Shown here in pieces: positions 7,715 through 10,710 of a stretch of DNA of 14,608 bases. Under the pieces are notes generated by a model that ran no database searches, was not told the DNA's origin, and was given only the letters and a program-made list of their open reading frames with translations. The position numbers were made by a program, and so were the translations under genes. The DNA is taken from assembly GCA_026932145.1 (NCBI GenBank), contig JAIXKT010000040.1:1-14608 (forward strand). The letters run 5' to 3'. Origin of the DNA: Bacteroidia bacterium. GTDB lineage: Bacteria > Bacteroidota > Bacteroidia > J057 > JAIXKT01. How positions within the stretch are numbered: the first letter of the stretch is position 1; the number at the start of each line of letters is the position of its first letter.

Positions 7715-8227
7715 CTAATGAATTTCTGCTCCCAAAGAATCTGACTCCGGAATATCATTTGGTCGCTCGTAACGATGATAATTTTCAAATTGTTCTTTAT
7801 TAAACTGTCTTTTATCCATTTTGAATATAGTTATCAAAAGAGCATACGAGAGAATATTAGCAATCAAAATCATTATCCATCTGTGTGATTTTGGCATAGT
7901 ATTTTCTCTTTTATGTAACCAATAGCCTTCTATCAAAACTGAAGTTGCAAAAGCTACGAATAGAAAAGTAACCGGGTCATCGTTTGAATGAAACAAGGCT
8001 GCGACAAAACCGACTATTGTAGTAATCAGGTTTATCAACGTAGAGTCAATGAGTACATTTCTCCACGTTCCCCAGTTAAAGAGCTTAAAAACAGTAGCTT
8101 CTATAAGAGTAACTGCTATTTGGAGCGATAGGAAGCCCAAAATTCCAAAAGAATTTTGGGCTTCCATCCAGCTATAACCTATCAAAACATCCGCTAACCC
8201 TGTAGAAGAGTCTAAAAAACAGAGCAT
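7715..8227 (-). CDS. Small integral membrane protein (170 aa) with about four predicted TM helices and a charged C-terminal tail. It is translationally coupled to the upstream MVP-like gene.
   Basis: There are four hydrophobic segments (e.g. GILGFLSLQIAVTLIEATVF; LINLITTIVGFVAALF; VTFLFVAFATSVLIEGYW; WIMILIANILSYALLITIF). Its ATG (8227-8225) overlaps the TAA stop of the upstream gene (8229-8227) as TAATG. The family is not recognised. Confidence 0.6.
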   Translation of the reverse strand: MLCFLDSSTGLADVLIGYSWMEAQNSFGILGFLSLQIAVTLIEATVFKLFNWGTWRNVLIDSTLINLITTIVGFVAALFHSNDDPVTFLFVAFATSVLIEGYWLHKRENTMPKSHRWIMILIANILSYALLITIFKMDKRQFNKEQFENYHRYERPNDIPESDSLGAEIH

Positions 8228-10710
8228 TACTGTTCCTGAGTATAGTCCATAACGGTCATAGCATTTTCGAGGGCAGTTCCTTTCAGGAGGTTTCTAAAGA
8301 CATCGGATACGCTTTTTCCACCGAGTATTGCCATTGGAGCCATAGATTCTGCGACCTTTATGGCTAATGCACGGTCTCCAAAGGCTTGTAACGCTGCAAT
8401 TAAATCTGGTGAAAGCGCTTGTGCCTTTTTGACCAATGCTTCAACCTCAGATTGCTGTTGTAATATCTTATTTTCTAATTCTTTTTTGGCTAAAGCTATC
8501 TCTAATTCTTGTTCTGAGCGGCGAATATCCGTTTGAGTTTGACTGATTTTACCTTCGAGAGAAAGCTCGGTTAGGCGTTTTTGGAGTTTTTGCTCAGCTT
8601 GCTGCACTTCAGATTCAATGCGCACTAAACAAAGAGACAGGTATTTTTTTACTTCTTCTTCATCTGATTGCCAAGCGATTTTACGGGTTTCAGATTGCAG
8701 TTGGCTAACCTGACGATTTACGGTTTCTGTTTCACGGACATATTCTAAGCGTCTATTTTCACTTTCTAAGGCTAATTTTTGTTTCACAACTTCATGTTGT
8801 TGGCCAATTAGCAGACCTTCTATGCTGCTGTCTCCTAATTTTATATCCAGCACTTCTACGTCATAGATGCGCATTCCATTTTCCTCAAAAAACCTTCCTG
8901 TTCTTTTACCTCCTTCAACGGCGACTCCTAAAATCCAATCACGCAGTAAGTTAGTTCCATTAGCATAAAATTCCATGATAGAAATTTTATGTACAGCGTT
9001 TCTGATGATAGAGCGCATGTGGTCGGTTAGAAACTTGACATAATTTTCTACATTAAACCATTTTTCTGATTCTCCTTCAAAATTAACGCGGTAGGAAAGG
9101 GTTATGCTTACGCTACAAAAATCGGCAGATTCAGCGGCTACTATGTCTGATACTTTGTTATGCAGTACTCTTAGATAGGCAGAGCGAAATAGGCTAACAT
9201 CTGTTTTGGGAGTTCCGGTAGATAGTTCAAAGGCTTCAAGTATTTCGTCATATTCAAGGAGGTAAGTTTGCGGCCCCTGCACTACTTTTCGAGTTCCGGT
9301 AGGGCTAACAACCAATACAGCATAACCGGTATAAATCCGAATGGTTACGGCACCATCGTATTTGGTGTCTAAGGTGATCATGCGCGGGGGTGTATATTGG
9401 CTTCCGCGGTTGTATGAATCACTGACCATTTTTTCACTTGGGCGTACCTTTTTAGAAGTGATTAATGCGTTGGGAGTATTTTCTGTTACTAATTCTTGTC
9501 GCTGCTGGGCAACCTGAATATTGTTGGTGTCTATTTCCTCTTGTTGCTCCTTTTCTTGTCGTTCTTTGAGTTTGACGTTGTATTCTAAGGCTTCTTTGTT
9601 TCCGGGGAACCAGAGTTCAACTTTTCGGGAGTCAAGGATTCTGCGAACCAAAACATATTGTCTGGGGTCTGGCAGAAAGACGCAGGGGCCGCGCATGAGT
9701 GAAATTTTACCGGATATTCTATCCATAAAATACCGGCCTTCACCTGGGGGGATTGCTATGGCAAAGTGCCGTTCTTGGCTGCCGTATTTGATAACAGCGT
9801 GTTCCGGACGAGGGTAGTAAATCATCTGGTCTTTTCCAGTAATAAACAGTTCGTCTCCTTCTTTATAAGATTTTCCGCTTTCTTCGTAGGGAGCTATTAT
9901 CTTGATATACAAGCCGCTTATTTCGCTGAGTTCTATGGATTTAAACTTGCGGGAGTTATCTTCGGTGATAAATTCTTCGGTGGGGTCTGGAAATACGACA
10001 GCAGGCCCACGCACATAACGCTTGGTTCCTTTTTCGTCTAATAAAATGCAGTATTCCATCCGCTCTAAGGTAACGGCCTCCCGAACATACTGTTCATACT
10101 CATCACGAACGACTTCTATACCTGTTGGCGGGATGTAAAAGGAAACGTCCATCCCTTTGATAATCAACAATTTTCCGATACTCAGGTCTTGTACTTCTCC
10201 GAGCGGATTTTTGTTTTCTCCTTCTGATTTTTGGGGTTTTATCACAGCAGAATCCCAATTTTTTCGGGCTTCAATTTCGTCATATACTCGCACAAGTAGA
10301 TATTGGTTAGAGCGTAGCTGGTGCCCTTGTATAACCCGCGCCATTTGTCCTGGCCATAAAGCAAAAGAGACAGGCCCTGGTAGGTTTACCTTTCGGCCAA
10401 TATTAAGTTCTGGTAGGCTGTTTGAAGTACCTTGTTTGGGTTGTTTAGCGTCCGAAGCAGGGTTCTTTAACATAACATACCAAGCCTCTGGAGCAGTAGC
10501 AAAAATCTGAATGCTTTCGTCTAAAGAGCATCTATTAAATCGCTTTGTCCTAGAATCAAAAGTTACCGGTTTATCAGTATTTGCGAGGGAAGTCTTGTAG
10601 GGGCCAACATAAACATTGATATTTCCCTTTGTTTGGTCAGAGATAAAAGCATACTCATTGGGAGCAAGTACTAAATCTCTTTCTCGATTACTGTCTTGAT
10701 TATCCGCCAT
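8227..10710 (-). CDS. Bacterial homologue of the major vault protein (MVP), 827 aa. It has N-terminal vault repeats, an SPFH/band-7-like shoulder domain, a long coiled-coil cap-helix and a C-terminal cap-ring-like segment.
   Basis: The N-terminal segment LVLAPNEYAFISDQTKGNINVYVGPYKT closely parallels the eukaryotic MVP start (..[28 protein letters not shown]..). There are about seven to eight further ~55-aa repeats with the P..Y..V...P/G...V..G pattern (e.g. VNLPGPVSFALWPGQ, VSFYIPPTGIEVV, RYVRGPAVVFPDP, MIYYPRPEHAVIKYG, LMRGPCVFLPDPRQYVLV, VLVVSPTGTRKVVQGPQTYLLEYDE). Residues ~505-640 resemble the SPFH/band-7 fold. Residues ~640-765 are a heptad-rich E/Q/K/L coiled coil. The start is ATG at 10710. 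Confidence 0.8.
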   Translation of the reverse strand: MADNQDSNRERDLVLAPNEYAFISDQTKGNINVYVGPYKTSLANTDKPVTFDSRTKRFNRCSLDESIQIFATAPEAWYVMLKNPASDAKQPKQGTSNSLPELNIGRKVNLPGPVSFALWPGQMARVIQGHQLRSNQYLLVRVYDEIEARKNWDSAVIKPQKSEGENKNPLGEVQDLSIGKLLIIKGMDVSFYIPPTGIEVVRDEYEQYVREAVTLERMEYCILLDEKGTKRYVRGPAVVFPDPTEEFITEDNSRKFKSIELSEISGLYIKIIAPYEESGKSYKEGDELFITGKDQMIYYPRPEHAVIKYGSQERHFAIAIPPGEGRYFMDRISGKISLMRGPCVFLPDPRQYVLVRRILDSRKVELWFPGNKEALEYNVKLKERQEKEQQEEIDTNNIQVAQQRQELVTENTPNALITSKKVRPSEKMVSDSYNRGSQYTPPRMITLDTKYDGAVTIRIYTGYAVLVVSPTGTRKVVQGPQTYLLEYDEILEAFELSTGTPKTDVSLFRSAYLRVLHNKVSDIVAAESADFCSVSITLSYRVNFEGESEKWFNVENYVKFLTDHMRSIIRNAVHKISIMEFYANGTNLLRDWILGVAVEGGKRTGRFFEENGMRIYDVEVLDIKLGDSSIEGLLIGQQHEVVKQKLALESENRRLEYVRETETVNRQVSQLQSETRKIAWQSDEEEVKKYLSLCLVRIESEVQQAEQKLQKRLTELSLEGKISQTQTDIRRSEQELEIALAKKELENKILQQQSEVEALVKKAQALSPDLIAALQAFGDRALAIKVAESMAPMAILGGKSVSDVFRNLLKGTALENAMTVMDYTQEQ

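Follow-up and report, generated by a model that had tools for sequence, protein, structure and literature searches.

A four-helix membrane protein encoded directly behind a bacterial major-vault-protein homologue is probably a lineage-specific operon neighbour and not a conserved vault partner

In a 14,608-nucleotide contig of a Bacteroidia bacterium (GenBank assembly GCA_026932145.1, contig JAIXKT010000040.1; this whole 14.6-kb stretch is hereafter the window), a gene that resembles the one encoding major vault protein (MVP) is directly followed by a gene for a 170-residue membrane protein with four hydrophobic helices. The initial annotation of this DNA proposed that the small protein might anchor a vault-like particle in the membrane or otherwise serve as its partner. 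Our comparison suggests instead, with a probability of about 0.7, that the adjacency reflects a lineage-specific arrangement within an operon, in which the small protein belongs to an independent family, and not a conserved vault partnership. The two observations named beforehand as contradicting the annotation were both made: other bacterial MVP loci lack such a neighbour, and relatives of the small protein are unlinked to MVP in the five other contexts sampled. Because of them, a vault-partner role is poorly supported. The pair consists of the following elements:

8227 to 10710, minus strand: MVP-like gene, 827 amino acids (aa), upstream member of the pair, identified by Pfam and PDB matches.
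7715 to 8227, minus strand: gene of the 170-aa protein, predicted to lie in the inner membrane with four helices and to belong to a family that neither Pfam nor NCBIfam contains (omega 0.14; AlphaFold2 (AF2) score 82.3).
8225 to 8229, minus strand: TAATG overlap of the MVP-like stop and the 170-aa start, read directly; identical in locus L061, and TAAGCGATG (3-nt spacer) in loci L058 and L059.

Its domains mark the upstream gene as a true homologue of MVP. Its product exceeds the Pfam gathering scores for the SPFH-like MVP shoulder (MVP_shoulder, 3e-29, 101.9 bits, cutoff 25) and for the vault repeat (Vault_3, 8.6e-07, 29.4 bits, cutoff 28.8), which places it in the MVP family, and MVP chains in the PDB match residues 455–767 at 8e-14. 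The same PDB sequence search found no bacterial vault structure. The likeness to the eukaryotic vault (MVP, TEP1, VPARP and vault RNA) ends with this gene, however, as the other components have no counterpart in the window: domain and RNA scans of the 14.6 kb detected no TEP1 or VPARP domains and no vault RNA, in agreement with the annotation. According to the available parts of two preprints, bacterial MVP homologues are already known in Cytophagales, Myxococcales and Oscillatoriales (bioRxiv 10.1101/872010), as are phage MVPs (bioRxiv 10.1101/2023.11.10.566534). Within the accessible text of the sources that a literature search on bacterial and phage MVP returned, we found neither a gene-context analysis for partners nor a bacterial vault structure.

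Relatives of the small protein are mostly remote. A word-indexed search of 5.8 billion proteins with the single sequence as query found two close homologues only. An exhaustive HMMER search with a profile of three clade members, run against 1.84 billion cluster representatives at E≤1e-3, retrieved 139 other representatives, giving 140 in total. They are mostly 125–135 aa long and match core residues 27–135 of the window protein. From 60 sequences of this four-transmembrane-segment (4-TM) family we built an alignment, A2, whose profile scores the window protein at 143.8 bits (E 1.8e-43), the sequence itself being included in the profile.

Is the small membrane gene a regular companion of bacterial MVP? 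A genome scan with one genome per species yielded 57 MVP loci (L001–L057), with flanks fetched up to 6 kb, and a metagenome scan yielded 37 further loci (L075–L111), with flanks fetched up to 3 kb. The MVP homologues at these loci show 38–66% identity, and those of the genome scan come from Cytophagales, Saprospira, Bernardetiaceae, Riflebacteria, Desulfobacterales, metagenome-assembled genomes (MAGs) of Bacillota and others. We ran the family profile with hmmsearch --max against every open reading frame (ORF) of at least 40 aa in the fetched flanks; positive controls were recovered at E 1e-24 to 1e-43, and no family member was detected at any of the 57 genome and 37 metagenome loci. A tblastn search with the 170-aa protein gave one chance match at the 57 genome loci (E 0.18) and none at the 37 metagenome loci. 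The expectation that bacterial MVP is consistently accompanied by a member of this membrane-protein family, which the annotation had offered for a cross-genome check, thus failed in the fetched flanks of all 94 other loci.

Nor does an unrelated membrane protein take its place. In 78 loci the 3′ flank was readable, that is, the MVP 3′ end was complete and followed by at least 300 nt, and in none of the 78 did a same-strand ORF with at least two TM segments start between −10 and +60 nt from the MVP stop. The gene 3′ of MVP differs between loci and is often convergent. Clustering of all flanking ORFs of the 57 genome loci revealed no family common to more than six loci, and the six-locus families reflect clade-specific synteny. 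The window's own neighbours (RluD-like, GT4, RecO, dihydroorotase-like and DUF4476 proteins) were not found near the other MVP genes, with the sole exception of an RluA-family gene in L003. Across phyla, bacterial MVP thus behaves, as far as gene order tells, as a stand-alone gene without a conserved neighbour.

Several further observations on these loci deserve mention. Synteny around MVP exists at clade level, for example in a Riflebacteria group (L012–L016, L048, L051, L055). The RluA-family pseudouridine synthase of L003, a Cytophagaceae MAG, lies just 5′ of MVP (5005–5544, plus strand) and is 27% identical to the window's RluD-like protein. MVP homologues within the same identity range also occur in MAGs labelled Planctomycetota and Moduliflexus, and the patchy spread of bacterial MVP homologues is suggestive of horizontal transfer.

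We then consider where the 4-TM family itself resides. Five distinct genomic contexts of remote family members were read, and a tblastn search with MVP against all five found nothing; in the five contexts sampled, members of the family are thus unlinked to MVP. In L062–L066, the family gene is divergent from LepA/LepB and abuts a gene for an MFS-like protein of ~350 aa. In L073 and L074 it overlaps the gene of an MFS-like protein that shares 40% identity with its L062 counterpart. In L069 and L070 the family gene overlaps the Obg stop, as TGATG in L069, and is followed by NadD-like and DUF3267 genes. Two tandem family paralogs follow an LpxL-like acyltransferase gene in L071 and L072, and the family gene of L067 and L068 sits inside an SDR/TetR cluster. 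Because a one-base overlap joins the family to unrelated upstream genes, the TAATG of the window points to operon membership and not to partnership. Two divergent sub-clades, on the other hand, are directly followed by mutually homologous MFS-like genes, abutting or overlapping, so that by gene order the 4-TM family has a stronger candidate partner, conserved with it, in the MFS-like protein than in MVP. As side observations, these MFS-like proteins (339–354 aa; L062 6499–7563, L065 6493–7551, L066 6496–7542, L073 5399–6418) score 27–29 bits against Pfam MFS_1, with a cutoff of 33.4. The tandem paralogs are 138 aa each (L071 3551–3967 and 4095–4511; L072 908–1324 and 1452–1868), an arrangement that hints at 4-TM proteins acting as hetero-oligomers.

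What could such a protein do? Kyte-Doolittle analysis of the 170-aa product gives four peaks (residues 29–47, 58–76, 86–104 and 117–135), and the AF2 model computed from the 60-sequence alignment is an all-helical four-helix bundle (helices at residues 21–49, 55–79, 85–106 and 113–154) with a mean predicted local distance difference test (pLDDT) of 82.3 and core blocks at 91–98. The four hydrophobic helices of the annotation were therefore found by both approaches:

8087 to 8143, minus strand: TM1, residues 29–47, with invariant Glu43 (IEAxV); Kyte-Doolittle peak 1.93, alignment A2.
7991 to 8056, minus strand: TM2, residues 58–79, with near-invariant Asn66 and Gly73; Kyte-Doolittle peak 1.91, alignment A2.
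7916 to 7972, minus strand: TM3, residues 86–104, with invariant Glu100 (SVLIEG), a repeat of TM1; Kyte-Doolittle peak 1.69, hhalign.
7823 to 7879, minus strand: TM4, residues 117–135, with invariant Asn124 and near-invariant Ser127-Tyr128 (ANxxSY), a repeat of TM2; Kyte-Doolittle peak 2.28, alignment A2, hhalign.

In A2, E43 (TM1), E100 (TM3) and N124 (TM4) are invariant, W52, N66 (TM2), G73, L104, S127 and Y128 are near-invariant, and an N-terminal [LA]-D-[VI] motif is conserved; the window protein carries the family's E43, E100, N124, N66 and W52, the last within the W-G-x-F/W-x-R loop. Hairpin 1 (TM1–TM2) aligns with hairpin 2 (TM3–TM4) in hhalign at a probability of 97% (E 9.4e-11), pairing IEAxVL...NLxST with SVLIEGxxL...ANxxSY. 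Judged from this alignment, the family has a 2x2-TM build that goes back to an internal duplication, the 2-TM hairpin being present twice in tandem.

Curated libraries offered no home for the family. Of 60 members scanned, none attains the cutoff of any Pfam or NCBIfam family, and searches of the PDB by sequence and by fold returned no relative. Two candidates were considered and set aside. The match to Cation_ATPase_C (PF00689), the C-terminal helices of P-type ATPases, is confined to 2 of 60 members; at 20 bits (E 6e-4) it stays under the cutoff of 27.3 and is probably a likeness in hydrophobic-helix composition. FraC, a cyanobacterial filament-integrity membrane protein, has no match in the window protein and scores 13–18 bits in relatives, compared with cutoffs of 100 for NF045624 and 27 for PF24301. 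The FraC matches do recur: the N-terminal 2-TM hairpin of FraC (NF045624 positions ~8–64) is weakly matched, at E 0.0025–0.045, by 5 of 10 members, and the best match among 60 members (E 9.5e-5) is still far under the 100-bit cutoff. The matching members are P0003, P0007, P0010, P0013 and P0038, and in P0038 the match covers the second hairpin. Since the matched region is consistent across family members, FraC may share the hairpin unit, and the likeness would amount at most to a common ancient hairpin. A defence-system or phage origin of the pair is likewise unsupported, as PADLOC and PHROGs gave zero matches for either the MVP-like or the 170-aa protein.

Under our preferred reading, the 4-TM gene would have come to sit directly behind the MVP-like gene in a narrow Bacteroidota (Cytophagales-like) lineage. 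The two genes would probably share a transcript, which might start from a promoter in the 105-bp spacer upstream of MVP, and ribosomes that finish MVP at its TAA would begin anew at the ATG overlapping it. In each hairpin of the product, the first helix has a Glu within the membrane (E43, E100) and the second an Asn (N66, N124). Most likely, but at low confidence, this Glu/Asn cluster within the four-helix bundle would bind or relay a cation or proton. The 4-TM protein would act alone or as an accessory transporter subunit; an accessory role for a permease is possible because the MFS-like neighbour recurs in two divergent sub-clades. A closely related proposal is that the protein serves a transporter or other membrane complex encoded elsewhere in the genome, for example an MFS-like one, and that its position behind MVP is functionally meaningless. 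The translational coupling of those two sub-clades to homologous MFS-like proteins speaks for this proposal, but there is no MFS-like gene in the 14.6-kb window and other sub-clades have no MFS-like neighbour. We consider it unlikely as a separate explanation, and it refines the operon-neighbour reading rather than competing with it.

On the minus strand, the MVP-like TAA (8229–8227) and the 170-aa ATG (8227–8225) have one base in common, and the letters across the junction read GAACAGTAATGCTCTGT; the overlap had thus been correctly annotated. An AGGA is located 7 nt 5′ of the ATG. The further claim of coupled translation and co-expression draws support from the sequence: the tight junction in both lineages that carry the pair, together with the AGGA, supports the two genes forming a single transcription and translation unit, which we infer from sequence, but as a sign of partnership the junction is no better than chance. 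One-base stop/start overlaps are among the commonest junction types for same-strand bacterial neighbours. Ordinary bacterial gene pairs that are translationally coupled through ATGA or TAATG overlaps are alike in their one-base same-strand overlap and upstream AGGA, and no feature sets the TAATG of the window apart from this common case.

Where would transcription of the pair start? The region upstream of MVP is the following:

10711 to 10815, minus strand: intergenic spacer of 105 bp upstream of MVP, 25.7% GC, possible promoter region.

The AT-rich gap of the annotation is therefore present, but its composition is ordinary, because the other intergenic spacers of the window have 24–39% GC (the whole window has 40.4%). 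A putative promoter element, TATATTCG (TAnnTTnG, Bacteroidota −7-like), sits in this spacer 24 nt before the MVP ATG. A sigma-70 promoter scan of the window detected no site in the spacer and 13 overall, compared with 15.5 expected from shuffled sequence.

The pair was found only in the window, in L061 and in L058–L060, the last three being one and the same locus. Relative to the window, the L058–L060 lineage has an MVP that is ~84–85% identical and a small protein that is 56% identical. No relatives with an MVP identity of 66–84% were found in the genome or metagenome collections. RecO converges downstream of the pair in L058–L060 as it does in the window. Because this convergent gene is retained as well, retention of the pair may be plain local synteny.

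Could the protein nevertheless have been recruited to MVP within this one clade? The question turns on which parts of it MVP could reach. The tail quoted in the annotation, KRQFNKEQFENYHRYERPNDIPESD, corresponds to residues 139–163 and lies in the following segment:

7718 to 7822, minus strand: charged C-terminal tail, residues 136–170, clade-specific and predicted periplasmic (alignment A2, identity, positive-inside counts).

The charged tail is thus real, and what was not confirmed is its cytoplasmic label. Basic loops face the cytoplasm by the positive-inside rule, and topology is normally conserved within a membrane-protein family. Averaged over 60 sequences, loops 1 and 3 together contain 5.9 Lys+Arg, compared with 1.0 in the N-terminal part, loop 2 and the initial 15 residues of the tail combined, and the excess in loops 1 and 3 holds in 60 of 60 sequences; in the window protein it is less clear-cut, at 6 versus 4. 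These family counts predict an N-out/C-out topology with two short basic loops in the cytoplasm, and make a periplasmic tail more likely than a cytoplasmic one. If the tail is periplasmic, just two loops of 10–12 residues would lie on MVP's side of the membrane, and these predicted cytoplasmic loops are family-wide traits, not clade-specific ones.

The tail also evolves rapidly. Compared with P0002, the tail is 37% and the core 61.5% identical, against 85% for MVP within the clade, making the tail the fastest-evolving segment; such divergence would be hard to reconcile with a peptide that docks a shell protein evolving slowly. In the AF2 model the TM4 helix is prolonged to residue 154 at pLDDT 63–77, and the tail is helical or disordered. 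Most family members, of ~130 aa, have a short tail or none, and a few longer members carry unrelated tails.

Known SPFH systems provide the closest parallels. In SPFH–NfeD operon pairs (QmcA-YbbJ, stomatin PH1511-PH1510, FloT-YuaF), a cage-forming SPFH-type gene likewise stands beside a small polytopic membrane gene (~150–170 aa). NfeD partners, however, have a C-terminal OB-fold beta-barrel and a Pfam NfeD match, whereas the tail of the 170-aa protein is helical or disordered. We rejected the protein as an NfeD, as it has no Pfam NfeD match at E≤0.01 and its all-helical AF2 model lacks an OB fold. In its available part, one source describes the NfeD–SPFH pairing as conserved across phyla (PMC2636767); the MVP/4-TM pairing, by contrast, is confined to one clade and absent from the fetched flanks of the 94 other MVP loci. 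NfeD/YbbJ is cited as the operon-encoded small membrane partner of the SPFH protein QmcA in the accessible text of PMC12624060. In Bacillus subtilis, the membrane proteins SamG and SamH recruit the cytosolic SPFH protein SamI, as the available portion of a preprint reports (bioRxiv 10.64898/2026.02.06.704340). As far as that portion goes, this system resembles ours in combining operon-encoded small membrane proteins with a soluble SPFH protein, and its mechanism is the one first proposed for the MVP pair; the likeness lies in the description of the system, whereas the MVP pair is known from genes alone.

Together, these parallels frame a proposal in which the 4-TM protein was recruited, in this clade only, as a membrane tether or gate for an SPFH-type vault-like cage, its tail or cytoplasmic loops binding MVP and the coupling fixing co-expression. 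The points that weigh against the operon-neighbour reading are largely those that favour this proposal. Adjacency and a tight junction, overlapping or 3 nt apart, persist between lineages whose synonymous sites are saturated, and the survival of adjacency is some evidence, a hint, of selection on the pair. A charged C-terminal extension of 35 aa is peculiar to the MVP-linked clade. The MVP shoulder is an SPFH-type domain, and other bacterial SPFH proteins have operon-encoded small membrane partners, NfeD/YbbJ with QmcA and SamG/SamH with SamI being the precedents. Our searches covered MVP flanks, so a family member may exist elsewhere in those genomes. Finally, the ion-binding or transporter-accessory role that we favour is drawn, at low confidence, from conserved residues and from gene neighbours in two sub-clades.

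Set against a tether are the 0 of 94 other MVP loci with a family member in their fetched flanks and the 0 of 78 with a membrane ORF directly after MVP, the coupling of family members elsewhere to unrelated genes, the predicted periplasmic and least conserved tail, the brevity of the family-wide cytoplasmic loops and the lack of an NfeD/OB-fold domain. We therefore regard a clade-restricted tether as quite improbable, and give slightly less credence still to its more specific form, in which a Cytophagales-like clade captured the Glu/Asn hairpin-repeat protein as a membrane dock for a vault-like cage.

All of these readings presuppose that the 170-aa ORF is a genuine gene, and conservation indicates that it is one, under purifying selection. 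The L061 copy (96% identical) differs from that of the window by 11 synonymous and 6 non-synonymous changes (omega ~0.14), and for the L058 copy pN is 0.27 with synonymous sites saturated. The homologue with 56% identity conserves residues 1–20, and the 'ADV' motif, found N-terminally across the family, falls upstream of the next Met; both observations support 8227 as the position of the true start codon. That the ORF is spurious, as the missing Pfam or NCBIfam family and the two lone close homologues might suggest, is refuted by these conservation data, with omega at 0.14, invariant residues across 140 remote representatives, a confident AF2 model and a conserved N-terminus and start codon, and we give it practically no weight.

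The remaining features of the window lie outside the pair. Downstream, the 4-TM gene and the convergent RecO gene are separated by a short spacer:

7682 to 7714, no strand assigned: spacer of 33 bp separating the 4-TM gene from the convergent RecO gene; it contains a weak hairpin and, after it, T-rich DNA.

The terminator-like site on the minus strand (7701–7687) has 5 pairs, 3 of them GC, its hairpin reads CCGTTTTTTTAGCGG, and the same sequence is found in L061. This weak hairpin may serve as a shared bidirectional terminator for the 4-TM gene and RecO. The gene calls of L059 make the two overlap by 4 nt. On the plus strand, positions 884–5575 encode a 1563-aa secreted protein that combines a pair of GBD_T9SS_assoc galactose-binding-like domains with a PPC domain and ends in a T9SS sorting domain (Por_Secre_tail 6e-13). 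This protein identifies the DNA as coming from Bacteroidota. A dihydroorotase-like amidohydrolase gene with a TTG start (5664–6947, plus strand) lies 5 nt upstream of RecO. Its product has no Pfam match and scores weakly in NCBIfam (92 bits versus cutoffs of 279–640); it is a divergent or possibly non-catalytic PyrC-like protein. At the window edge, three tRNA genes, Arg(tct), Pro(tgg) and Ser(gct), are clustered on the minus strand (14319–14569).

What do these observations imply for bacterial vault proteins? Eukaryotic vaults are described, in the available text of PMC12624060, as not membrane-associated, an exception among membrane-bound SPFH cages. A true vault partner would give the vault protein a bacterial membrane connection and tie it to those cages, going by the same text. 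Were the membrane dock true, MVP would be a membrane-associated SPFH assembly like stomatin, HflKC or flotillin, and the dock would offer a first way into the function of bacterial vault proteins. A membrane partner as a general feature of bacterial MVP is at odds with the comparative data. They provide a useful negative for inferring bacterial vault function from gene context, since MVP genes stand alone, without a conserved neighbour. The small membrane family is by itself a minor novelty, sparsely but widely distributed: it adds to what curated libraries cover a group of 140 representatives with invariant intramembrane Glu/Glu/Asn residues and a recurrent coupling to MFS-like genes.

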